A DNA stretch of 64,000 nt from an uncultured Chloroflexia bacterium. Its GTDB lineage: Bacteria; Chloroflexota; Limnocylindria; Limnocylindrales; CSP1-4. The DNA is taken from NCBI GenBank assembly GCA_963801745.1, contig CAWDFY010000004.1, positions 640,312 to 704,311 on the forward strand, given 5' to 3'. A model generated the notes under the pieces. That model had not been told where the DNA came from. It did not search any database and was given only the letters and a program-made list of their open reading frames with translations. Positions 4,470-63,850 of this stretch are shown here, one piece after another; within the stretch, counting starts at the first letter, position 1, and the number at the start of each line of letters is the position of its first letter. Made by a program: the position numbers and the translations under genes.

Positions 4470-5967
4470 GGGTCACACGCGTCGGGCCGGTGGAACGTCG
4501 GGGCCAGCGCCGGGTAGAGCGCCCGATAGGCCTCGTGCGCGTCGGCATACCGTTCCGCGTCCGGGCCCGGTGACGCGGCCGGGGCGACGCGGACCAGCGC
4601 CTCGGTCGCCTCCTCGACCGACCCGAACCAGCCGGCGCCGACCGCCGCCGAGCAGGGCTGCACCGTAGGCCGCGCCCTCGGTCGTGCTGACGGTGGCGAG
4701 CTCGGCGCCCAGGACGTCGGCGAGGATCTGGCGCCACAGCGGGCTGGCCGTCCCGCCGCCTGACGCCCGGACCTGGGCCGGCGCCGGCATGCCGGCCGCG
4801 ATCATCTGGTCGAGGCCGTCGCGCAGCCCGAAGGCGACGCCCTCGAGCACGGCCCGCGTCATGTGCCGCCGATCGTGGCCGACGCTCAGACCGACGAACG
4901 CGCCACGGGCGAGCGGATCGGGGTGCGGGCTCCGCTCGCCGGTGAGGTAGGGCAGGAACAGCAGGCCGTCCGAGCCGGGCGGCACGCCCTCGGCCGACTC
5001 GGTCAGCGTCGCGAACGACTCGCCCGGCGCCAGGGCGTCGCGGAACCAGCGCAGGCTGCCGGCCGCCGACAGCATCACGGTCATCATGTGCCAGCGGCCC
5101 GGGACGGCGTGGCAGAACGCGTGGACCTGGCCGGCCGGATCGCGCAGCGGTTCGGCGGTCGTGGCGAAGACCACGCCGCTCGTCCCGAGCGACAGGGCGA
5201 CGACGCCCGGTGCGACGGCCCCGACGCCGACGGCGTTGGCCGCCTGATCGCCGCCCCCGGCCACGACCGGGGTACCGGCACGGAGCCCCGTCGCCTCGGC
5301 TGCCGCCACCGTGATCATCCCGGTCACCTCGGGCCCCTCGAACGTCGGCGGCAGCCAGTCCGTCTCGATGCCCAGCGCCTCGAGCACCTCGCTCGACCAG
5401 TCGCGGGCCGTCGAGGTCGAACAGCAGGGTCCCGGCACCATCGGCCTTGTCGAGCGCGTGCTCGCCGGTCAGCCGCAGCCGGACGTAGTCCTTGGGCAGC
5501 AGCACGTGGGCGATCCGCGCCCAGACATCGGGCTCGTGGTCGCGGACCCACACCAGCTTCGGCGCGGTGAACCCGGTCAGCGCGGTATTGCCGGTGATCT
5601 CGATGAGACGCTCGGGCCCGATGGCGGCGCGGATCTCGTCGCAGGCATCGGCGGTGCGCTGGTCGTTCCACAGGATCGCCGGGCGGAGCACCTGGTCGGC
5701 CGCGTCGAGCAGCACGGCGCCGTGCATCTGGCCCGTCAGCCCGACCGCGGCGACATCCTCACCGGCGACGCCCGACGAAGCCAGGACGGCCCGGACCGCG
5801 CTGACCGTCCCGTCCCACCACAGCCCCGGGTCCTGCTCCGTCCAGCCCGGCCGGGGCACGTCGTAGCCGTACTCGGCCGTGCCGATCCCGACGACTGCCC
5901 CGGCCTCGTCGACGAGGACGGCCTTGGTGGCCGTCGTCGAGACGTCGATGCCGACGACGTGCGCCAC
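4466..5967 (-). pseudogene. xylB: Xylulokinase (FGGY family), two +1 frameshifts
   Basis: Three consecutive frames: MAHVVGIDVSTTATKAVL...WNDQRT; then SLGTSGVVF...GGGTASPLWRQILADVLG; then [17 protein letters not shown]. The frames join near 5400 and 4650. Confidence 0.85.
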
Positions 5968-23285: not shown

Positions 23286-23364
<79 letters not shown>

Positions 23365-23388
23365 CCTAAGCCGCCACGCCACCGTGGC

Positions 23389-23860
23389 GCTGGCGACATC
23401 GTCGGGCCCGCCCGATTCCTGGATGACTTCACGACGGCGCTCGGGTTCGAGCGGCTGGTCGTCCACGGGCATTCGATGGGCGGTCTCGTCGGTGGCGTGT
23501 TCGCCGGGCGGGTCTCAGATCGCGTCGAACGCCTGGTGCTCACGTCCGCGCCGCTTCCGGGTCTTCCCGACCCACCGCCGTTCCCGAGTGCTTGGCGCGT
23601 CGGGCTTCGCGTGGGACGACCCGTGGCTGACGTCCTGGTCGGCGCCGGTCTCCGTCTGAAGACCGACGCGTGGCGGCGCCGGGTCGATGCTCGGGACCCT
23701 CGCCTCGGGTCGGAGCTGTCCCGGATCTCGCCTGAGCTGCTGTCGCTGATCGCCGACGAGATGGGGCGCCTCGTGCTCCCCTGGCGCGTCGAGGGAGCTG
23801 TGGACGCCGCCCTCTCGATCCTTCGCGCGCTGACCGTGGATGAGGCCCGCACTCGCGGGA
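23389..23860 (+). pseudogene. Alpha/beta hydrolase fragment (N-terminus missing)
   Basis: Starts right after the tRNA hairpin with no start context. Contains the nucleophile elbow HGHSMGG. Runs into the reverse complement of the next fragment. Confidence 0.55.
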
Positions 23861-23861
23861 G

Positions 23862-24893
23862 GACGACGTACCGCACGAACTGTCCGAACGTGATCGGGTG
23901 CCCGTCGCGGGCGGCAAGGTTGGCCACGACGATGTTGGCCGAGGCGCCGACGATCGTCAGATTGCCGCCGAGACACGCACCGAGCGCCAGCGCCCACCAG
24001 AGGGGCTCCCCATCGAGCCCGGTCGCGATCATCTCCTCGACGATCGGGATCGCGGTGGCCGTGTACGGGATGTTGTCGACGATCGCGGAGCCAACGGCGG
24101 AGACCCACAGGATGCCGATGGTCGCGAGCTCGAGGCGTCCATCGACGACGTCGGCGAGGGCGTTGGCCACGGTGCCGACGATTCCGACGTGGACGACGGC
24201 TTCGACGAGCATGAACAGGCCGACGAAGAAGAAGAGCGTGCTCCACTCGATGTCGCGCAGCGACTCGTGCGGGTCGAGCGGGCCGACGAACATCAGGATG
24301 GTCGCCCCCAGCAGTGCGATCGTCGCCGCCTCGACGCCGATCACCGAGTGGAACAGGAAACCGATCAGCGTCAGGCCAAGGACCGCAAGGGCGCGGTACA
24401 TCAGCGGCCGATCGGTGATCGCGGCCGCAGGATCCAGGGTCGCGATCAGGTCGAGGCGGTAGTCGTCGTCGGCCATCGAGCGGCCGAACATCCACCACAG
24501 CATGGCCAGGAAGACGACCATGATGATGACGACGACCGGCGCCAGGTTGAGGAGGAAGTCCGCGAAGCTGAGGCCGGCGGCCGAGCCGATGAGGATGTTG
24601 GGCGGATCGCCGATGAGGGTCGCTGTCCCGCCGATGTTCGAGGCGAAGATCTGACTGATCAGGTACGGGAAAGGCGAGACCTTGAGCGTGCGGGCGATCG
24701 ACAGCGTGACCGGGGTCAGCAGCACCACCGTCGTGACGTTGTCGAGGACCGCCGAGAGCACCGCGGTGGCGACCGCGAGCATCACGAGCAGCCGGAACGG
24801 CTCCCCGCGAGACCGGTGGATGGCCACCCCGGCGACGTACTCGAAGAAGCCAGTCTTGCTGAGTCCGCGGCAGTACGGCACCGACATGTCCGG
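23862..24893 (-). pseudogene. ArsB/NhaD-superfamily (citrate-transporter-like) permease fragment, both ends missing
   Basis: Family motifs LSAVLDNVTTVVLLTPV and ASNIGGTATLIGDPPNILI. About 60 N-terminal residues and the C-terminus are absent. Embedded in the artefactual 723-aa ORF 22842-25013. Confidence 0.6.
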
Positions 24894-25272
24894 CGCGGAC
24901 TGTTTGAATTCTCTCGCATAGCCACCGCGAGCCGGGGGTGTCGCCGCGCTCGTACCGGAGTCCGCCATGCCAGGGCTCGAAGATGTGCTGCTCAAGAACG
25001 TCTCGTAGTCCAATCCCGAGCACGCTCGACCACCATGCCGAGCAGGACGTACCCCGTGCTGTTGTACGCGAAGAACGCCCCGGGCTCGAACCCAGCGGGA
25101 TGTCGGCGACGCTGGCTACGGTGTCGGCCGGCGTGGCCGCCTTCATAGGATCAAACCCCGGCTGGTCCGTGAAGTTCGCGATCCGGACGAGTGGCTGAGC
25201 AGGTGCTCGATCGTGACCACATCCATCCGTCGGGGCAAGTGTCCACGTAGTCGCACACTGGGTCGGTCGTCT
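24894..25272 (-). pseudogene. Serine-hydrolase/beta-lactamase-family fragment, frameshifted, SxxK region missing
   Basis: VTIEHLLSHSSGI, FEPGAFFAYNSTGYVLLGMVVE and PLGMADSG are recovered from different frames. There is no N-terminal catalytic part. Confidence 0.55.
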
Positions 25273-25342
25273 TCAACAACCCTGCGACGCGAGCATCAGA
25301 ACGGCCATGGCGTGAATTGCTTCGTGACGGAGCGAGGCGGAA

Positions 25343-25891
25343 TTACGTCTTTGGCGTGGAGTGGTGGTCGATGAGGTGGCGGTCGATCGAGATCGCCCGG
25401 AGCTCGCGGGTGAACGCGGTCTCGGTGCCGGCGCGGAACCGGATCCCGCGGCCTTGAGCTCGGCGAGGTCGCCACGCAGCAGCAGGGCATCGAGTGCGAT
25501 CGACGCGACGATGACGGCCTCGGGCACGACGCCCTTGCCGGAGCCTGCCGTGCGTCCGCCGTTGTCGTGGTGCTCGATGCTCACCGTGCGGCTGTTGAGG
25601 AGCGCGTTGGGTAGCGGTCGTCCCAGGCGCCCGAGGGGTCCCAGTTGCCGTTGCCCAGGATGGTCGCTGAGCCGCACGTACTGTTGGACGTGGGCGGTGG
25701 TCGGGTGGCCGGCGCGGCCGCAGCCGTAGCCGACGCCGAAGGTGGTCGAGGCCTCACGTCCGTCGGTCGACGTGAACGCGGCGTCGGTCGAGCGGAGCGT
25801 GCCGACCATGCGGTGATGGACCAGAGCGATGAGCGGTGCCGGGTGGCCGGCCGTGAACTTGGGTGAGCCGACCCAGTAGATCGGTGCTCAC
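25343..25891 (-). pseudogene. N-acetylmuramoyl-L-alanine amidase (amidase_2/PGRP-type), endolysin-like, frameshifted
   Basis: SPKFTAGHPAPLIALVHH..., ASTTFGVG, VQQYVRLSD / ILGNGNW and NSRTVSIEHHDNGG, spread across frames. The GTG overlaps the upstream stop (GTGA). Confidence 0.5.
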
Positions 25892-26234
25892 CTCACGCCC
25901 CGCCAGAAGGCCGAGGCCTCGAGTCCCAGGAGCGCACAGATCGCGCCGAGGACGGGCAGGAGGATGCCAGGGGCGATGTCGTAGTCGGGGACGCCGACAT
26001 CGAGGACGAGGAGGACGACCACGACGAGCGTGAAGGCCGTCGCGGCACCGACCCGGGCGGAGGAGTAGACGTCGGCCCGCGTGCGGCGCTCCGCATCGTC
26101 GCTGCGCTCACTGCCCATGCCGGTGCGTTCGGTCGATCCAGGCATCGACGAGTGAGCGGCAGCACGAAGCGGTCGAGGGCGCCGCCCATGACGACGCCAG
26201 CGAGGAACGCGAGGACGATCTCGACCGCGCTCAT
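25888..26234 (-). pseudogene. Holin-like small membrane protein, one frameshift
   Basis: An N-terminal TM helix (MSAVEIVLAFLAGVVMGGAL) in one frame and two C-terminal TM helices in the next. Directly precedes the amidase. The functional call rests on position only. Confidence 0.35.
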
Positions 26235-27039
26235 CGGGCCGCCGAGGCGTTGACGGCGCGGACGTACCCGGTGGGGGGAACCGGGAGTCGGTGTGGATCG
26301 GACCAGCGCGCCGTCATGCCCACAAGCGTGCGTGGCGACGGGTCCGCGGTTTCTACTTCGGTCGATTGGGCCATGCCTACGGAGCAGGTCTCGCGGCGCG
26401 GATCATGCCGAGTGATCACGCGGGCTGAGTGAGTGCCAGTGCAGATCAGGTAGGGCGACCAGCGCGACGGCAGTCCACCCGAGCGCGGCGACCGCGACGA
26501 ACATCGGCGGAGGGCCGAAGAAGAGGACGATGCGACGTCGAGACGACGGCCGACGCGACGGCGAGCGCTGAACGCGTCGCGCGCCGAACAGAGCAGCGGC
26601 GCGGCCGTACGACGAACTCGACGAGCGACGCGATCCAGAACGCGCTCGCCACGATGGTCGCGCTGTCGGAGCGAGCGGCAGGAGCCACGACCGCGCCGCT
26701 GTCCACGCGCCAGTCGCGGTCTACGGTCGGGCGGCCACCATGCAGGCGCCGCGATGACGCCCGCGTGTCCGACGCAGTGTACAGCGCGCGGCGAACCAGA
26801 CGACTCGAACGACCTGATCGACACGGGCGACTCGAAGCACGACGGACCAGACGACATCGGGAACAGCCGTCGCTCGAGCACGGTCTCAAGTCGCGTTCAG
26901 AAGTGCAAGGCCGCGATCGGCAACACGGGCAGCCGTACCGGGCGTCACGCGGGCACACCAACGCTGCACCACGCGCGGCACGGAGATCCACGCGCGCGGT
27001 CACGCGGGACCGCAGCCCAATTGCGATCGCCGATCCATC

Positions 27040-27602
27040 GGTGCTACGGGCCGCCAGGAGCCTGCCAGCCGCGGGTCGACATCGGTCGCGATCGCCGTCG
27101 GCGTGGCGCCTCCTCCAGCAGGACCGCTCGACGAATTGAGCCTCGAGCAGCGGCCGATGTCCCGGCGTTCGTCCTCTCGAGCTACGAGCGGCTGCCCCAG
27201 CTGCAGCTGCTCACCTGACATGGCGTGACAGCGACTCGACCAAGGGCCGCATCTACGTCGACCGATCGGCGCGGTCCGATTCGACCGGTTCGCGACCGCG
27301 CAGCGACTGAGCCTCCAGCTCACGGTCCTGAGCGGGAACACCCAGAGCGGCGTGGCGACCGTCGGTTCCGACAAGGTCTGGATCGAATCGGACGAGCCGA
27401 ATATCGGAGAGACCCGCGCGTGTTCCTTCGAACCATCCTCAGTCCCGCCGACGAGTGGCCACTGGCTGCGAGATGGAGCGCGACTCGAGTGATGTCGGCA
27501 CTGGCACCGCGGCAGCGGGCTGGCGGTACGTCGGTATCGAATACGTCGCGGGGCGCCCCACGCACGATGTCGCGTGTGTCGGCGATCTCTGGATCGACTG
27601 GA
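27040..27602 (+). pseudogene. LolA/LppX-like lipoprotein remnant, frameshifted and 3'-truncated by the AT-rich island
   Basis: Pieces in three frames: PLDELSLEQ..ADVPAFVLSSYERLPQLQLL; GRIYVDRS; WRYVGIEYVAGRPTHDVACVGDLWID. The family assignment is weak. Confidence 0.3.
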
Positions 27603-28090
27603 ACAATGCTTACTGCGGAAACTGAGTATATGCAGATGGTCAGAAGTAGAATCAAATTATAGGAGTGTTTCAGAATGTTAAAAGTTTTGAGAAGTAATAA
27701 TAAATCCGGATTATTAGATCTAGATGATATTGATACGTGAGCACTACCTTTCATTAGGTATCACAGAGAGGAGAAATACAGACAGGAGTAAATAAAACTA
27801 GAGGCGAAGTATGGACGGAAGGAGAGAAAAATATATGACGTTGGATAAAGCAATGGATCCGAGATATACGATGACGATGAGAGAGATGGATAGGACAAGT
27901 TCATTAGGAAATGAGGGATGAAGGCAATGATGGACGATGCACAGTATAGAAAGGAAGAGGTTGTGATTGAGGGCATGATATTGTGATACGATGGAACACC
28001 AGTGATTAGCTGTTTCATGTAGTATGATGTACTTCTATATCTGTAGATGGTGTGTTATAGTTATTATGGATATTATTAACGTGAAGGCGT
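27603..28090. other. AT-rich (~30% GC), purine-skewed, C-depleted island of unknown origin
   Basis: Direct inspection shows sharp compositional boundaries on both sides. The plus strand is mostly A/G. The island contains three SD-led mini-ORFs at 27675-27740, 27835-27921 and 27918-27986. Confidence 0.9.
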
Positions 28091-28185
28091 TTATCTAGAT
28101 CGTTGGCCCTGATCGTCGAGCAACGCTCCGATCGTTCCCCCGACCCACTGTCGTTGAGGCCCTTGCATTCGCTGGATCATGGGCG

Positions 28186-28211
28186 TATAGTGAACCACAT
28201 GGTTCAGTATA
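28186..28211. promoter_or_regulatory. ArsR/SmtB-type operator overlapping the ArsR start codon
   Basis: TATAG-TGAACC-ACAT-GGTTCA-GTATA inverted repeat. The ATG at 28199 sits in the dyad centre. Confidence 0.45.
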
Positions 28212-28564
28212 CGAGCGGGCCACTCGATGCCTCCTTCGCGGCGATCTCGGACGCCACCCGACGCGGCGTTCTGGAGCAGCTCGGACGTGCCGATGCTTCG
28301 ATCTCGGAATTGGCCCTGACGTTCGACATGACCCTCACGGGCATGCGGAAGCACGTCGGCGTCCTGGAGCACGCCGAGCTCGTCACCACGGAGAAAGTCG
28401 GGCGCGTGCGGACCTGCCGGCTCGGCCCGCGCCGACTCGAGGAAGAGACGGCATGGATCGAGCGGCACCGCCGGCTCTGGGACGCGCGTTTCGACGAATT
28501 GGACAAGGTCATCGAGGAACTCGAACGGAAGGAGAAGGTCGATGGACGCAACGAGAGCGAGTGA
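28199..28564 (+). CDS. ArsR/SmtB-family transcriptional regulator
   Basis: Winged HTH (ISDATRRGVLEQL...ISELALTFDMTLTGMRKHVGVLEHAELV). Confidence 0.8.
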   Translation: MVQYTSGPLDASFAAISDATRRGVLEQLGRADASISELALTFDMTLTGMRKHVGVLEHAELVTTEKVGRVRTCRLGPRRLEEETAWIERHRRLWDARFDELDKVIEELERKEKVDGRNESE

Positions 28565-29045
28565 GCCCACCCTCATGAAGAACCGTACGACGGTGGAGCG
28601 GACGTCCGAGCGTGAGCTCGTCGTCACCCGAACCGTCAACGGCCCGGCGCGCCTCGTGTTCGAGGCGTGGACCAAGCCCGAGCTGTTCAGGCAGTGGTGG
28701 GTGCCGAAGTCGCTCGGAATGTCCCTGCTTTCCTGCGAAATGGATGTTCGTGTCGGGGGCACGTACCGCTTGGAGTTCGCATTCGGGGACTCACAGTCGG
28801 CGGCGTTCTTCGGCACGTACAAGGAAGTGACACCGCACTCGCGCCTCGCCTGGACCAATGAGGAAAGTGACGAGGGTTCCGTCACGACCGTGACCTTCGC
28901 GGAAGAAGGCGGCAAGACGTTGCTGGTCATGCACGAGCTGTATCCCTCGAAGGAAGCTCTTGACGCCGCCGGCACCGGGGCGGCGGATGCGATGGGAGAG
29001 ACGTTCGAGCAACTGGACGAGCTGCTCGTCACCCTGGGCGCGTAA
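28542..29045 (+). CDS. SRPBCC/AHSA1 (Aha1-like) domain protein
   Basis: ELVVTRTVNGPARLVFEAWTKPELFRQWW is a typical AHSA1 start. Overlaps the ArsR 3' end. Confidence 0.8.
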   Translation: MDATRASEPTLMKNRTTVERTSERELVVTRTVNGPARLVFEAWTKPELFRQWWVPKSLGMSLLSCEMDVRVGGTYRLEFAFGDSQSAAFFGTYKEVTPHSRLAWTNEESDEGSVTTVTFAEEGGKTLLVMHELYPSKEALDAAGTGAADAMGETFEQLDELLVTLGA

Positions 29046-29132
29046 CACCAGACGGATCCTCGCGTCGTGCACGACCCCTGGGCGCCATGAGGCAGGTTCC
29101 GTCGGGTCGACCTGCCACGGTGCCCGCGGGGG

Positions 29133-29165
29133 TTGACAGTCGAGAAGCGTAAGTCGTAACTTACG
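29133..29165 (+). promoter_or_regulatory. Candidate promoter TTGACA-N18-TAACTT with palindrome CGTAAGT-N4-ACTTACG; likely leaderless transcript
   Basis: The -35 is at 29133-29138 and the -10 at 29157-29162. The GTG start at 29170 is 7 nt after the -10. The dyad spans the -10. Confidence 0.4.
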
Positions 29166-29169
29166 GTAC

Positions 29170-29526
29170 GTGAATACTTACGCATCGATCATGGACGCCG
29201 TCGGTGACGGCACGCGACGGGCGATTCTCGAGCGACTGCTCGAGCGGCCCGCGGCGGTCGGCGAGCTGGCGGCCGGGCTGCCGGTGAGCCGCCCGGCGGT
29301 GAGCCAGCACCTGCGAGTCCTGAAGATGGCCCGCTTGGTGACGGATACGCAGGTCGGCACGCGCCGCATCTATTCGGTCGATCCGGAGGGCGTCCGCGAG
29401 GTGCGTGAGTACTGGGAGCGCTTCTGGTCGCAGGCACTGGCCGGCTTCAAGGCGGTCGCCGACACCGAAGCCGAGCAGCGGGCCGGCATCGGCCGCAAGG
29501 AGAGTTCTGATGGCGATCGAGGTTGA
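29170..29526 (+). CDS. ArsR/SmtB-family transcriptional regulator
   Basis: DGTRRAILERLLERPAAVGELAAGLPVSRPAVSQHLRVLKMARLV. Confidence 0.8.
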   Translation: MNTYASIMDAVGDGTRRAILERLLERPAAVGELAAGLPVSRPAVSQHLRVLKMARLVTDTQVGTRRIYSVDPEGVREVREYWERFWSQALAGFKAVADTEAEQRAGIGRKESSDGDRG

Positions 29527-29977
29527 CGTGGAGGCTGACGTGGCGCTGGTGGTTCGCAGCTCGGTGACGGTGAAGCTGCCGCGCGACACGGCATTCCGGC
29601 TATTCACGGAGCGGATGGGCAGCTGGTGGCCGCTGGCCACCCACTCGGTGTTCCATGCCGAGGCGGTGGCGGTAACGATCGAGCCCGTCGTCGGCGGCCG
29701 CGTGTACGAGGCGACCGCCGATGGCCGCACTTCCGATTGGGGCACGATCACCGAGTGGCAGCCCGGGGAGCGCCTGGCGATGACGTGGCATCCCGGCGAC
29801 GAGTCCGATCTGGCGACCGTGGTGGAGGTGACCTTCAGCGAAGCGCCCGATGGCGGCACGCATGTCGATCTGCTCCATACCGGCTGGGCGGTGCATGACG
29901 CCGAGGCAGCCGCGAGGGCCGCCGACTATCAGCAGGGATGGACGGCTCTGCTCGAGGGGTTCGCGAAGGCCGCCTGA
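29510..29977 (+). CDS. SRPBCC/AHSA1 domain protein
   Basis: 155-aa ORF overlapping the ArsR end. RLFTERMGSWWP and WQPGERL motifs. Confidence 0.8.
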   Translation: MAIEVDVEADVALVVRSSVTVKLPRDTAFRLFTERMGSWWPLATHSVFHAEAVAVTIEPVVGGRVYEATADGRTSDWGTITEWQPGERLAMTWHPGDESDLATVVEVTFSEAPDGGTHVDLLHTGWAVHDAEAAARAADYQQGWTALLEGFAKAA

Positions 29978-30073
29978 GCGCGGCCGGGCAGCAGCCTCTC
30001 AGCTGGATCGGCCTGCCTCGAACGGCTCGCCGTGACCGGGCACGACCCGATCGGCGCTCAGGGCCGGACGTTC

Positions 30074-30368
30074 ACCTACGCTACGGTCGTGGTGGAGCGT
30101 GATTCCGACAATTCCAGCGACTTCCGACCTTGGCGTCTCCGCGACAGCGGCCGGGTCGATGCCCGGCGCCGAGAGCTGTTCGCGATGGCCGCGCCGGTCT
30201 TTCGACGAGATGGATACCGCGGGGCGACGATCAAGGCCGTCGCCCACGCGTGCGGGCTCAGCCCCGCGAGCCTGTACCACTACTTCTCGTCGAAGGAGGA
30301 CTTGGCGACCTACATCGTGCGCCGACCCCGGATGGACTGGGACAGCGTCTGGGTCGACCCGACGAGCG
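30074..30368 (+). repeat. Dispersed repeat copy 1 (TetR promoter plus 5' coding region), roughly 85% identical by eye to 39567-39855
   Basis: Hand alignment of ACCTACGCT...TTCCGACC.TGGCG.CTCCGCG...GCCGACCCCGGATGGACTGGGACAGC..TGGGTCGACC. Confidence 0.7.
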
Positions 30369-30571
30369 ACCCGCTCGTGCAGCTCCGGCAGTTGCTCGAC
30401 CTGTCGTTGGCAGAGCTCCCGAACTTCCTGCTCGCGCTGCGACTCGAGGACGAGATCGCCGGAATCGGCCGGGTCGATGGCACGCACGCCCGCTCATTCC
30501 GTGAAGGCGAGTCGATGACCGGTCGTGGCGCAGGGTCGAGGAGAGCCTGGCCCGTGACCGCCGCCTGGTGA
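30089..30571 (+). CDS. TetR-family regulator, probably 3'-truncated or chimeric tail
   Basis: HTH (GYRGATIKAVAHACGLSPASLYHYFSSKEDL). TACGCT -10 is 6 nt before the GTG (leaderless-like). The ligand domain is short and the tail runs into a hydrolase fragment. Confidence 0.65.
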   Translation: MVERDSDNSSDFRPWRLRDSGRVDARRRELFAMAAPVFRRDGYRGATIKAVAHACGLSPASLYHYFSSKEDLATYIVRRPRMDWDSVWVDPTSDPLVQLRQLLDLSLAELPNFLLALRLEDEIAGIGRVDGTHARSFREGESMTGRGAGSRRAWPVTAAW

Positions 30572-30963
30572 TCATCAGTGGCCCGGGCCATGGGGCCAGC
30601 GCCGATCCTGGGCATCGGTACTCGCTCGACGACTGTGCGGCAGCGGCCGGTGAGGTCCTTGCGGCGCTCGGCATCCAGGGACCCGTGGACTGGGTCGGTA
30701 ATGCGTGGGGCGGGCACGTGGGGATCGTGTTCGCGTCGTCCCGGCCAGACCGGTGCCGGACCCTGATCACCTTCGGCACGCCGGTCCAGGCCTATGGTCG
30801 ATCGCAGCGCCTCGTGTTCCGGACCCTGCTCGCGGTCTATCGCGTCGTGGGGATGGTGGACTACCTGGCGGGCGGGATCCGCGACGCCCTGCTGTCGCCC
30901 CACACGCGCTCGACCGATCCGGATGCTGTCGCGCGTCCGGGACCTCTGGACGCGATGAGGTAG
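30505..30963 (+). pseudogene. Alpha/beta hydrolase fragment lacking its N-terminus
   Basis: The frame opens right after a stop, inside the TetR tail. W..VEESLARDRRLVIISGPGHGAS and WVGNAWGGHVG (nucleophile-elbow position) are present. Ends early. Confidence 0.5.
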
Positions 30964-31075
30964 GTTCCATCGGGCCGAGTGCCTCGCCCCGACCATCTCT
31001 ACGCTGTCTTCGGTGGTCATCGTAGACCGGCCGTTCGGGCGACCACGTCTGTCGCTCGTCGCTACCCTTCAGGAG

Positions 31076-32407
31076 ATGATCCCGGAAACGCGGTACGCCC
31101 GACTTGGCGACCTGCACCTCGCGTATCAGGTCGTTGGCAACGGTCCGCCCGACATCCTGCTCCTCGACCAGTGGTTCGGCAATCTCGATGCCCAGTGGGA
31201 CGTGCCGCCGCTGGCGGCGCTCCGGGAGCGCCTGGCGACATTCGGCCGGCTGATCATGTTCGACAAGCGGGGGACGGGCTTGTCCGACCCGATCCCGACC
31301 TCCACGCTGCCGACCCTCGAGGAGTTCATGGCCGACATCCCGGCGGTGCTGGACACGGTCGGGTCCGAACGGGCGGCGCTGATCTCGAACATCGGCGGTG
31401 GGATCCTCGCGATGCCCTTCGCGGCAGCGCATCCCGAGCGGGTCTCGAGCCTGATCCTCGTCGATTGCTTCGCGCGGTTCCTCGAGGCGCCCGACTTCCC
31501 CATCGGGGCGCCGATCGCTGAGCTGGCGCCCGCCCTGGAGCTGGCTGAGGACGACACCGGCCGCGGGGTGATGATCGACCTGTTCGCGCCGTCTGTCGCC
31601 GGCGACGAGCGGATCCGCCGCTCGTGGGCGAGATACGAGCGTGGCGCGGCGACGCCCGGCAGCACAAAGGCGATCGTCCGTCTGATCTACGAGAGCGATG
31701 TGCGCGACGTCCTGCCTGCGATCCGTGTCCCGACGCTGGTCATCCATCGCGATGCCGCCATGGGCTTCAGCGTCGCGCACGGGCGGTATCTCGCAGGGCA
31801 CATCCCGGGTGCCAAGTACGTCGAGCTGCCCGGCGCCGACAACCTCATCTGGGCAGGCGATCAGGATGCGATCGTCGCCGAGATCCAGGATTTTGTGACG
31901 GGCGTTCGACCGGTGCCCGATCCACGCCGGGTGCTTGCGACCGTGATGTTCACCGACATCGTCGGGTCGACACAGCTGGCGGCCGAGCTAGGCGACAGCC
32001 GGTGGCAGCGGCTGCTGGCGGACCACAACCGGATCGTCCGGCACCAGCTCGAGCGGTTCGGCGGGACCGAGGTCAAGGTCACAGGCGACGGCTTCTTGGC
32101 AACGTTCGACGGCCCGGCCCGGGCGATCCGCTGTGCCGCGGCGATCCGCGACGAGGTCATGGATCTCGGGCTCGAGATCCGTGCCGGGCTCCACGTGGGC
32201 GAGATCGAGGTCGTGGCGGGCGACATCGCCGGCCTGGCGGTCCACATCGCTGCAAGGGTCTCGGCCAAGGCCGGGGCCAGCGAGATCCTCGTCTCGAGCA
32301 CTGTCAGGGACCTCGTCGTGGGGTCGGGACTGGACTTCGATGATCGCGGTACGCACGATCTGAAGGGTGTCCCCGGCTCGTGGCACCTTGTTGCCGTTCG
32401 ACGCTGA
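31076..32407 (+). CDS. Alpha/beta hydrolase - class III adenylate/guanylate cyclase fusion (LipJ-like architecture)
   Basis: The N-terminal hydrolase fold has no obvious GxSxG (NIGGG). The C-terminal cyclase has VMFTDIVGST, KVTGDGFLATF and GLHVGEIE. Confidence 0.85.
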   Translation: MIPETRYARLGDLHLAYQVVGNGPPDILLLDQWFGNLDAQWDVPPLAALRERLATFGRLIMFDKRGTGLSDPIPTSTLPTLEEFMADIPAVLDTVGSERAALISNIGGGILAMPFAAAHPERVSSLILVDCFARFLEAPDFPIGAPIAELAPALELAEDDTGRGVMIDLFAPSVAGDERIRRSWARYERGAATPGSTKAIVRLIYESDVRDVLPAIRVPTLVIHRDAAMGFSVAHGRYLAGHIPGAKYVELPGADNLIWAGDQDAIVAEIQDFVTGVRPVPDPRRVLATVMFTDIVGSTQLAAELGDSRWQRLLADHNRIVRHQLERFGGTEVKVTGDGFLATFDGPARAIRCAAAIRDEVMDLGLEIRAGLHVGEIEVVAGDIAGLAVHIAARVSAKAGASEILVSSTVRDLVVGSGLDFDDRGTHDLKGVPGSWHLVAVRR

Positions 32408-32411
32408 AGCA

Positions 32412-33278
32412 ATGCCACGCCTGCAGTCTCGTCCCTTCACCACGCCCGATGAGACGCGGACCTTTCCGCACGGCAGCGCCACGGTGCTCAAGCTCGACGA
32501 GGCCGTCGTTGGTCGTGCCGTCTACGAGCCCGGCTGGCGATGGTCGACGGCCATGCGACAGATCGCGGGCACGCCGACGTGCGAGCTGCATCACCTCGGC
32601 TACTCGATCTCCGGCCTCATGCACGTCGTGACGAATGACGGCCAGGAGCTCGACATCCTGCCCGACTCGATCTATGAGATCCCTTCGGGTCACGACGCAT
32701 GGGTCGTCGGCGACGAGCCATGGGTGACGCTCGAGTGGACCAGCGCCCGAGAGTTCGGCGTGTCGCCCGAAGGGCCTGGCGAGCGGATCCTGGCGACCGT
32801 CCTGTTCACCGACATCGTCGACTCGACGGCGATCCTGCAGCGGGTGGGCGACGCGGCATGGCGGGACATGTTGGCGGCACACAATCGTCTGCTGCGCGAA
32901 GACCTCAACGTGTTCCGCGGGCGCGAGATCGCGACGACCGGGGACGGGTTCCTCGCGGTCTTTGACGGCGCGACCCGTGCCGTCCGCTGTGGCCTCGCCA
33001 TGACGCGCTCCGCTCGAAGGGCGGGCTTGGCGATCCGGGTCGGCCTCCACACGGGAGAGGTCGAGATGGAGGGGCCCGATGCCCGGGGTGTCGCCGTCCA
33101 CGCAGCCGCGCGAGTGATGTCGTTCGCCACCGCGAGCGAGGTGCTTGTCTCCTGGACGACCAAGGACCTTCTCGAGGGCTCCGGGCTGACTCTCGAGGAT
33201 GCCGGAACGCACGAGCTGAAAGGGCTCGACGGCCAACGTCGCCTTTTCAGGCTCATCCCCGCCGGTGACCTGGCGTGA
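32412..33278 (+). CDS. Cupin-domain - class III adenylate/guanylate cyclase fusion
   Basis: N-terminal cupin-like barrel (HHLGYSISGLMHVV...IPSGHDAWV), then VLFTDIVDST, TTGDGFLAVF and GLHTGEVE. Confidence 0.8.
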   Translation: MPRLQSRPFTTPDETRTFPHGSATVLKLDEAVVGRAVYEPGWRWSTAMRQIAGTPTCELHHLGYSISGLMHVVTNDGQELDILPDSIYEIPSGHDAWVVGDEPWVTLEWTSAREFGVSPEGPGERILATVLFTDIVDSTAILQRVGDAAWRDMLAAHNRLLREDLNVFRGREIATTGDGFLAVFDGATRAVRCGLAMTRSARRAGLAIRVGLHTGEVEMEGPDARGVAVHAAARVMSFATASEVLVSWTTKDLLEGSGLTLEDAGTHELKGLDGQRRLFRLIPAGDLA

Positions 33279-33658
33279 CTGATCCCCGGGCTACCGACGA
33301 GACGCGCATCGATCGCTGGCTGTGTGCGGTCCGCCTCGTGAAGACTCGCCCCCTTGCGACCCGATTGTGCGAGGCCGGCCATGTCCTCGTGAATGGATCT
33401 CCGGCAAAGCCGTCGACAAAGCTTCGCGCAGGCGATCGGGTGGAGGCCCGCATCGCGGATCGCGAGCGCGTCGTCGAGGTCGTGCGGCCGATCGAGTCGC
33501 GTGTCGGGGCACCCGTCGCCGCGACCTGCTATGTGGACCACAGCCCGCCGGTCGTGCGCGAGGCCGGGCCGGAGATCGTCCTCATCCGTGGGGAGGGCCG
33601 TCCGAGCAAGCGTCTACGGCGCGAGCTCGAGCGCCTGCGCCGGGCCGCCCCCGGCTGA
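33275..33658 (+). CDS. S4-domain RNA-binding protein (Hsp15-like)
   Basis: RIDRWLCAVRLVKTRPLATRLCEAGHVLVNG. The GTG overlaps the cyclase stop. Confidence 0.7.
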   Translation: MTDPRATDETRIDRWLCAVRLVKTRPLATRLCEAGHVLVNGSPAKPSTKLRAGDRVEARIADRERVVEVVRPIESRVGAPVAATCYVDHSPPVVREAGPEIVLIRGEGRPSKRLRRELERLRRAAPG

Positions 33659-33722
33659 GCGCCTGCCGTCGGGCCGCATCTCCGTAGCGGCAAGCCGCTA
33701 CATGATCGACTCGTGGAGGAGC

Positions 33723-34319
33723 TCAGCCTGTCGGCGCTGTCGCCCGAGTCGTGAGCCATGCGACGAACAGGTCGGACACGAGGTCCGCAGCCTGGACCTG
33801 GCTCCTGCCCGTCGCTTGGAGGCCCCCGATCACCCACGTCCCGAGCACGGTCGTGACCACGGCAACCGCATCCTCGTCATCGGCGAGGGGACCGAGGGCG
33901 GCACGGATGAGCGCGTCGAGCTCCCGGTAGAAGCGCTGTTCGGCATCGGTCCACAACCCGACGCCAGGCTCGCGCTGTGAGGCTCGCCACCACGGCTCGC
34001 TGCGTTCGAAGAATGCGGCCAGCTTGTGGACCAACAGGTTGATGCGGTCCGCGAGGTCATCGACGCCGTCGAACACGTCGGGCGTCGGCATCTGGAGGTC
34101 GCCCAGGATCCGCGCGATCACCTCAGCCGCCAAGGCGTCGAGAGACCCGAAGTGGTTCGCGACCGTGCCGGGCGCGACGTCCGCCCTGCGGGCGATGTCC
34201 TGCATGGTCGTGGCTGACACACCTTGCTCCTGGTACAAGGCGAGCGCGGCATCGACGATCCGCCGTCGTGTGTCGGCTTGCTGGACAGCGCGTTTGCCGA
34301 GGCTGTAGGAGCGCGGCAC
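33723..34319 (-). CDS. TetR-family transcriptional regulator
   Basis: Intact 198 aa. HTH TMQDIARRADVAPGTVANHFGS. Divergent from the cupredoxin cluster. Confidence 0.85.
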   Translation of the reverse strand: MPRSYSLGKRAVQQADTRRRIVDAALALYQEQGVSATTMQDIARRADVAPGTVANHFGSLDALAAEVIARILGDLQMPTPDVFDGVDDLADRINLLVHKLAAFFERSEPWWRASQREPGVGLWTDAEQRFYRELDALIRAALGPLADDEDAVAVVTTVLGTWVIGGLQATGRSQVQAADLVSDLFVAWLTTRATAPTG

Positions 34320-63743: not shown

Positions 63744-63840
63744 CATCGCTCCTGGGAGCGGTCGGGCCCCGGTGGGTCCCCCGGTCTTCAAAACCGGTGA
63801 CGCCGCGCTCGGCGTGGCGTGGTGGGTTCGACTCCCACGC
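63744..63840 (+). tRNA. selC: tRNA-Sec (anticodon TCA), 97 nt, CCA encoded
   Basis: Hand fold: 6-bp D-stem GGGCCC/GGGTCC with a 4-nt loop, anticodon stem CCGGT/ACCGG with loop CTTCAAA, long variable arm, T-arm GTGGG-TTCGACT-CCCAC, and an extended acceptor stem. Confidence 0.9.
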
Positions 63841-63850
63841 GTTCCCGCCA

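Follow-up and report, generated by a model that had tools for sequence, protein, structure and literature searches.

An orphan AT-rich, C-depleted block beside a broken gene in a variable stretch of a Chloroflexia genome: a possible scrap of foreign DNA

The subject of this analysis is an orphan block of about 490 bp which is located in a 64,000-nucleotide stretch of DNA from an uncultured Chloroflexia bacterium (GenBank assembly GCA_963801745.1, contig CAWDFY010000004.1, positions 640,312 to 704,311); the whole of this stretch is referred to as the window and all positions are numbered from its first nucleotide. The block is AT-rich and depleted of C on the plus strand, begins exactly where a neighbouring gene breaks off, is absent from every related locus with which it was compared and carries no recognisable RNA, protein or repeat signature. 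The favoured reading, which is given an even chance of being correct, sees in the block an inert orphan, a scrap of low-GC DNA of foreign origin that has been kept at a junction formed by illegitimate recombination. The original prediction placed the block at 27603-28090 and listed four interpretations (a small-peptide locus, a non-coding RNA locus, a foreign insert and a chimeric insert) without choosing between them, and this interpretation is partly supported by the results described here. The block is composed of three parts that differ in composition:

27600..28088, no strand assigned: orphan AT-rich, C-depleted block, defined by its composition and, at the left edge, by alignment to the related loci L005 and L087; without homologue
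27600-27759: first part of the block, A/T-rich
27760-27960: second part of the block, 75% purine
27961-28088: third part of the block, G/T-rich

Between 27603 and 28090 the plus strand contains 36.1% A, 10.0% C, 27.0% G and 26.8% T. The resulting G+C content of 37.1% compares with a mean of 70.4% (standard deviation 4.1%) for all 488-nucleotide segments of the window, which places the block approximately eight standard deviations lower. The block is the only region of the window in which 150-nucleotide segments fall below 50% G+C, and no such segment occurs in approximately 60 kb of sequence from the relatives L002, L003 and L005. The GC skew over the whole block amounts to +0.3 to +0.58. Windowed statistics agree with the AT-rich, C-depleted and strand-skewed island that had been predicted, and the count of 17 G+C in the segment 27661-27720 was reproduced exactly. 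The plus strand had furthermore been described as three-quarters purine, which is accurate for the centre of the block (74.6% in 27760-27960) but not for the block as a whole (63%), as the two ends contain 57% and 52% purine. The scarcity of C on the other hand is a uniform feature and amounts to 9-11% in each of the three parts.

The left edge of the block coincides with the break in a gene:

27029..27599, plus strand: gene fragment of unknown family, frameshifted and truncated at its 3' end, with the homologues P0121-P0128; homology ends at the codon ...DLWID

The DNA of this gene (27100-27598) shares 83-84% identity with L005 and L087, both of which carry an ECF-type/sigma70 gene upstream of the homologue. 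The alignment to these two loci stops at ...GGATCGAC / ...CTCTGGATCGAC (27599), past which the relatives continue with ATCGAGACC and the window with TGGAACAATGC, and tblastn with the homologues of the gene ends at 27598. The left edge is therefore sharp, as had been proposed, but it is located at 27599|27600 and not at 27602|27603. The homologues run at least 75 residues past DLWID (IETRLILRTQGP...), and these remaining residues are found nowhere in the 64-kb window. The block had been thought to cut a GC-rich gene; the gene is indeed truncated, but a simple insertion into it is rejected because the continuation of the interrupted gene is missing from the window. The loss of the rest of the gene implies instead that the block sits at the junction of a deletion or rearrangement where native DNA was lost. 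The frame had also been labelled LolA/LppX-like, a label which is not retained since no Pfam match is found for it at E<=1. The left-flank gene (27229-27622) is split by frameshifts, and its counterpart in L005 (9376-10360) has likewise been called as two overlapping open reading frames (ORFs); either this family decays repeatedly, or long-read assemblies have indel errors there.

The right edge, which had been described as equally sharp, is fuzzy and falls between 28080 and 28095. It is followed by a short unique sequence and a conserved two-gene module:

28089..28150, no strand assigned: about 60 nucleotides of normal GC content that separate the block from the conserved module and are matched in no relative
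28163..28213, plus strand: promoter and operator of the ArsR-AHSA1 module, with TTGCAT, a 17-nucleotide spacer and TATAGT, and an inverted repeat; the hexamers are read from the sequence
28199-28564, plus strand: ArsR-family regulator, Pfam HTH_20
28542-29045, plus strand: AHSA1/SRPBCC protein, assigned to the AHSA1 family and by homologues

Homology to the module in other genomes begins at 28151-28187 and not earlier. The distance from the block to the ArsR promoter is about 75 nucleotides and that to the operator palindrome about 95, which confirms the predicted position of the block upstream of an ArsR operator, and both promoter and operator are intact and untouched by the block.

Several features that would identify a mobile element were looked for in and around the block. 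No terminal inverted repeats join its two ends, there is no target-site duplication, direct repeats in the flanks being limited to chance 5-10-mers, and no second copy is present in the 64-kb window or in 88 related loci. An insertion sequence or a miniature inverted-repeat transposable element (MITE) is rejected on these grounds. Like MITEs and the remnants of insertion sequences, the block is short, non-coding and interrupts a gene; unlike them it lacks terminal inverted repeats, a target-site duplication and a second copy, and the gene which it interrupts does not resume beyond it. No integrase or transposase is encoded among the neighbouring genes examined. Within the block there is no tandem array, the closest approach being a 15-nucleotide unit repeated 2.1 times at 27763-27794. 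The imperfect internal repeats that had been reported are present at the positions given, but, as 9-mers and 12-14-mers, they do not exceed chance: the block contains two repeated 9-mers where dinucleotide shuffles contain a mean of 1.7 (P = 0.43).

The setting of the block is best seen by comparison with L002. The variable stretch which is defined by this comparison extends from 23362 to approximately 33273, between tRNA-Pro and an S4-domain gene, and the block lies in the middle of it rather than at the distal edge of a tRNA-Pro island as had been suggested. Besides the broken gene at the left edge of the block, the following features belong to this setting:

23286..23362, plus strand: tRNA-Pro(CGG), left anchor of the variable stretch
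23890-25013, minus strand: truncated CitMHS/ArsB-type permease which lacks about 50 N-terminal profile positions
30170-30568, plus strand: TetR N-terminal domain alone
30568-30960, plus strand: alpha/beta-hydrolase fragment, profile positions 36-110 of 245

In L002 the tRNA-Pro 3' end, the ArsR-AHSA1 module and the S4-domain gene follow each other in the same order as in the window, which shows that in this lineage the DNA on either side of the block is linked, while the content of 23362-33273 differs between the genomes. L002 in addition carries an exact 26-nucleotide copy of the tRNA-Pro 3' end (4494-4519, corresponding to 23337-23362 of the window) at a site where there is no tRNA gene, and a 125-bp copy (82% identity) of the 5' end of the S4-domain gene (4766-4890, corresponding to 33273-33395 of the window) about 5 kb upstream of the full gene. 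These duplications look like att-type sequences, which may date from a site-specific integration event in the interval from tRNA-Pro to the S4-domain gene. Given the truncated genes that surround the block, a fifth unrelated piece fits the setting. The genes farther to the right (31013-34316) are long and intact, so that the decay is local and does not reflect a general problem of consensus quality.

The relatives that were examined comprise 80 JGI and 8 ENA loci, each of which includes a gene from one of the two flanks. None of the 88 contains the block, and an empty site in which the two flanks are joined directly is seen in none of them. The contigs of P0063 and P0125 have the same length (16,818 bp), which had hinted at a single contig with both flanks; the contig that encodes P0125, a homologue of the left-flank gene, has however no ArsR-AHSA1 module.

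It is proposed that foreign DNA was taken up into the variable stretch that lies between tRNA-Pro and the S4-domain gene, and that the block is a remnant, about 490 bp long, of this cargo, most plausibly derived from a phage, a plasmid or another mobile element of a low-GC donor. Illegitimate recombination together with deletions would then have joined the block at 27599|27600 to the truncated, frameshifted gene fragment on the left, and on the right to the approximately 60 unique nucleotides that precede the intact ArsR-AHSA1 module. The purine excess, the scarcity of C and the few start codons on the plus strand that are preceded by a Shine-Dalgarno (SD) sequence would be what remains of a decayed donor coding strand. 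The foreign insert that had been listed among the possibilities is upheld as far as composition and absence from relatives are concerned, but not as a simple insert.

Two known classes of sequence resemble the block, which can be compared to a xenogeneic AT-rich island on a small scale or to a gene-remnant segment of an integration hot spot, and nothing points to a new mechanism. The targets of Lsr2-type silencers are defined by a distinct drop in GC content (PMC7002338, PMC6584129), and in an actinobacterial host a drop such as that of the block (37% against 70.4% G+C, unique in the window) would by analogy be expected to attract silencers of this type (PMC7002338, PMC6584129). Like the xenogeneic AT-rich islands that are targeted by Lsr2/CgpS in high-GC Actinobacteria, the block shows a sharp drop in G+C, lies in a variable stretch next to a tRNA gene and is absent from close relatives. 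Such islands are usually kilobases long however and contain recognisable genes (prophages, gene clusters), whereas the block has 490 bp, no gene and no known donor; its depletion of C on one strand is also unusually strong. With gene-remnant segments at tRNA integration hot spots the block shares the truncated and frameshifted genes all around it, and the duplicated tRNA-Pro 3' end and S4-domain gene 5' end of L002 are likewise as expected after site-specific integration. The other scraps in the stretch have a host-like composition and identifiable homologues, and the block has neither.

The position of the block in an intergenic region upstream of a regulator, together with its strand asymmetry, would suit a gene for a structured non-coding RNA or a leader that regulates the ArsR operon in cis. 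This explanation is close to refuted and its probability is considered minimal. A search of the whole window against Rfam at gathering scores returned no match in the block, and at E<=10 the region 27300-28400 matches just snoJ33 (16 bits where 45 are needed) and EAV_LTH (15 bits where 70 are needed), both at chance level. The block folds no better than shuffled sequences, with z-scores of +0.37 for the plus and +0.96 for the minus strand, 63 and 84 of 100 shuffles respectively being at least as stable. There is no terminator in the block. The block lies upstream of the promoter of ArsR, and the ArsR mRNA, to judge from the DNA sequence, would be leaderless: the operator is a 14+14-nucleotide palindrome (CGTATAGTGAACCA..TGGTTCAGTATACG) which spans the ATG at 28199 as well as the -10 element, and this ATG sits 8 nucleotides past TATAGT. 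The block is furthermore absent upstream of ArsR-AHSA1 in every relative whose contig reaches past the promoter.

The three mini-ORFs on the plus strand, which had been predicted together with purine-rich motifs upstream of them, are present as described:

27675..27740, plus strand: mini-ORF 1, 21 codons (MLKVLRSNNKSGLLDLDDIDT), with TAGGAG 9 nucleotides upstream
27811..27921, plus strand: mini-ORF 2, 36 codons from the ATG at 27811 or 28 codons from the ATG at 27835, with GGAAGGAGAG upstream of the latter
27918..27986, plus strand: mini-ORF 3, 22 codons, with an ATG that overlaps the stop codon TGA of mini-ORF 2 in the sequence ATGA, and with an SD-like motif of poor quality or unfavourable spacing

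They raise the possibility of a functional and recently acquired small-protein locus, in which the plus strand is transcribed and two or three of the SD-led mini-ORFs are translated, the last two being coupled through the ATGA overlap at 27918 that can be read directly from the sequence. If a count is made of distinct ORFs that start with ATG, have 20 codons or more and are preceded by an SD-like motif at a distance of 5-16 nucleotides, the plus strand contains three where 0.39 are expected from 2000 dinucleotide-preserving shuffles (P ~0.005, a post hoc value), and with stricter motifs two where 0.15-0.22 are expected (P 0.009-0.018); the minus strand has no SD-led ORF. The test was designed after the ORFs were known and gives P values from 0.005 to 0.22 over nine definitions, with 0.02-0.05 for a cut-off of 15 codons and 0.09-0.22 for one of 25 codons, and the motif of the third ORF is poorly spaced. 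The somewhat enriched number of SD-led ORFs is a weak signal for the small-peptide option and the only positive one in the block. Homologues were not found: six-frame pieces of at least 15 residues, the mini-ORFs included, were compared with 5.8 billion proteins and had no match at E<=10. When the 36-residue form of mini-ORF 2 was searched exhaustively with HMMER against 1.84 billion representatives, there were two matches, both of them long repeat proteins that share a short D-P-x-Y motif with it, and these are regarded as chance similarities amplified by the repeats. Also against a small-protein locus, the absence of a terminator is accompanied by promoter-like sites at chance level (one against 1.2 expected), the period-3 signal is marginal (0.315 against 0.285 expected), and the peptides by inspection are neither hydrophobic as toxins are nor rich in Cys, Ser or Thr as precursors of modified peptides are. 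A functional small-protein locus is accordingly judged improbable. The enrichment of SD-led ORFs is better taken as a hint that the plus strand formerly served as the sense strand of a donor which employs ribosome-binding sites than as a sign of present function. The lack of an Rfam match, of excess folding, of a terminator, of an excess of promoters and of a protein homologue is counted for the absence of a present function, as the favoured reading of an inert scrap would have it. A more adventurous variant, in which the block is a very recent and still active acquisition from a low-GC donor, comprising either a regulatory RNA without structure or a compact small-peptide operon with coupled translation beside the autoregulated ArsR module, is given a probability slightly lower still.

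The origin of the block was sought at the level of both DNA and protein. BLASTN against plasmids, phages and E. coli genomes yielded as its sole match 47 nucleotides of a Priestia plasmid (E = 0.5). Exact-word scans of further collections returned one chance 23-nucleotide match in a Firmicutes metagenome-assembled genome (22-mer, genome collection), none in a metagenome collection (20-mer) and one chance 22-nucleotide match in six scans of viral collections. In the bacterial code each reading frame of the block contains 6-18 stop codons. No full-length frame exists on the plus strand under translation tables 2, 4, 5, 6, 9, 14, 15 or 25, the long frames that appear on the minus strand under alternative codes follow from the scarcity of G on that strand, and Pfam finds nothing above its cut-offs in any of the frames, alternative codes included. 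Coding DNA of an organelle or of an organism with an alternative code is therefore rejected, there being no open plus-strand frame and no family match. A native copy that has been hypermutated by C-to-T, G-to-A or C-to-A changes was rejected as well: in alignments with reduced alphabets (R/Y, M/K and S/W) against the window, L002 and the continuation expected from L005, similarity was at or only marginally above that of shuffles, with a best R/Y segment of 33-35 against 29-31 in three shuffles and gapped L005 alignments below the shuffle maxima.

A number of points weigh against a foreign scrap as the explanation for the block. No donor or homologue was found in any search, so that the block is called foreign on the strength of its composition, and the searches of the collections employed exact 18-22-mers with one probe per scan, which diverged copies would escape. 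A G+C content of 37% in a 70% genome would mean a recent arrival, yet no intact gene is left. The arrival is marked neither by an integrase or transposase nor by a repeat. The uniform depletion of C over three parts that otherwise differ is unexplained by the purine loading of a coding strand alone. Finally, the relatives include Flye-named ENA contigs and the source itself may be a Nanopore-only metagenome bin, which makes an artefact possible.

An artefact of sequencing or assembly would mean that an aberrant or chimeric long read, or a mis-join, was kept in the consensus of the metagenome-assembled genome and that the block is absent from the organism. Consistent with this, the block is an orphan in every database searched, starts exactly where a gene is cut in mid-sequence and overlaps no called gene on record (13 candidate ORFs were looked up). 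The flanking proteins are on record from just one NCBI/ENA contig (835,702 bp), and the closest relatives were found in metagenome assemblies of the ENA whose contigs are named in the style of Flye. A large set of metagenome-assembled genomes from soil was produced by a Nanopore-only pipeline of Flye and one round of Medaka (PMC12313526), with no shown tie to this window. The order of the flanks on the other hand is the same as in L002, which makes a mis-join of unrelated regions unlikely, and an artefact internal to the contig would need two false junctions in one read. Junk from stalled pores is typically of low complexity. The block is not: it contains 316 distinct 5-mers against 333 +/- 8 in shuffles, which is near random. 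None of 22 adapter and barcode sequences of Oxford Nanopore Technologies (ONT), PacBio and Illumina matches the block at the preset cut-off, which allows no more than 5 of 100 shuffles to match equally well; the ONT rapid adapter comes closest and is equalled by 6 of 100. The enrichment of SD-led ORFs on one strand is not expected of noise, the long and intact genes at 31013-34316 speak for a good consensus quality, and removal of the block does not restore a continuous gene. Depletion of homopolymers was considered as a signature of the basecaller and rejected as not diagnostic, as the observed/expected ratio of the block equals the host mean, both being 0.76. The block therefore resembles the in-read and chimeric artefacts of long-read metagenomes in that it is an orphan with sharp edges in a bin that is probably derived from Nanopore reads, and differs from them in that it lacks an adapter or barcode, is not of low complexity and has flanks that are syntenic with L002. 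On balance an artefact is unlikely, although it retains an appreciable share of the probability.

A further explanation is that the block is filler from the repair of a double-strand break, either DNA that was end-joined between the broken ends in a reaction of the Ku/LigD type or even the product of a template-independent polymerase. The block lies exactly between two unrelated native pieces, shows no repeats, target duplication or microhomology, has a complexity near random and is depleted of C on one strand (10%) throughout, whatever the local content of A and T. Bacterial end-joining is known to add a few nucleotides and not hundreds, and a block of this length exceeds such additions; in addition, no gene for a polymerase or reverse transcriptase was seen among the neighbours examined, and an enrichment of SD-led ORFs is not expected of untemplated DNA. 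Repair filler is therefore regarded as very improbable. In a related and speculative form, the C-depleted strand may be the chromosomal fossil of DNA that was made untemplated or from RNA and was captured at a break.

If the block is real, an inert foreign scrap would represent a clean, small case of raw foreign DNA that persists in a high-GC chromosome beside a tRNA hot spot, and it would offer a natural test site for the binding of silencers and for how fast a foreign composition is eroded. If it is an artefact, it serves as a warning that long-read metagenome bins may carry internal orphan segments which survive polishing and resemble novel loci. In either case, composition alone is no proof of function here.

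The ArsR-AHSA1 module to the right of the block is of interest in its own right. Its DNA (28151-29045) is 90-93% identical to that of L002 (9615-10498), L003 (9617-10498) and L088 (123-1000), the contexts of the module in these three loci being otherwise unrelated, and it is matched in dozens of the 80 metagenome loci that were fetched. The operator palindrome is kept in L002, L003 and dozens of metagenome loci, and the ArsR gene appears to be leaderless. More than 580 metagenome stretches encode a relative of the module, and homology to it always starts at its own promoter and operator. ArsR-AHSA1 behaves like a small, widely shuffled and self-regulated unit. A second, diverged pair of ArsR (HTH_5) and AHSA1 genes follows directly after the first at 29170-29977, which results in tandem regulator-SRPBCC modules.

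Two adjacent adenylate/guanylate cyclase genes (31013-33278) are located just before the S4-domain gene; one cyclase is fused to an alpha/beta-hydrolase domain and the other carries an N-terminal domain without a Pfam match. Towards the far end of the window, a gene for tRNA-Sec (anticodon TCA) is found at 63754-63850, and its presence makes it probable that the organism produces selenoproteins.

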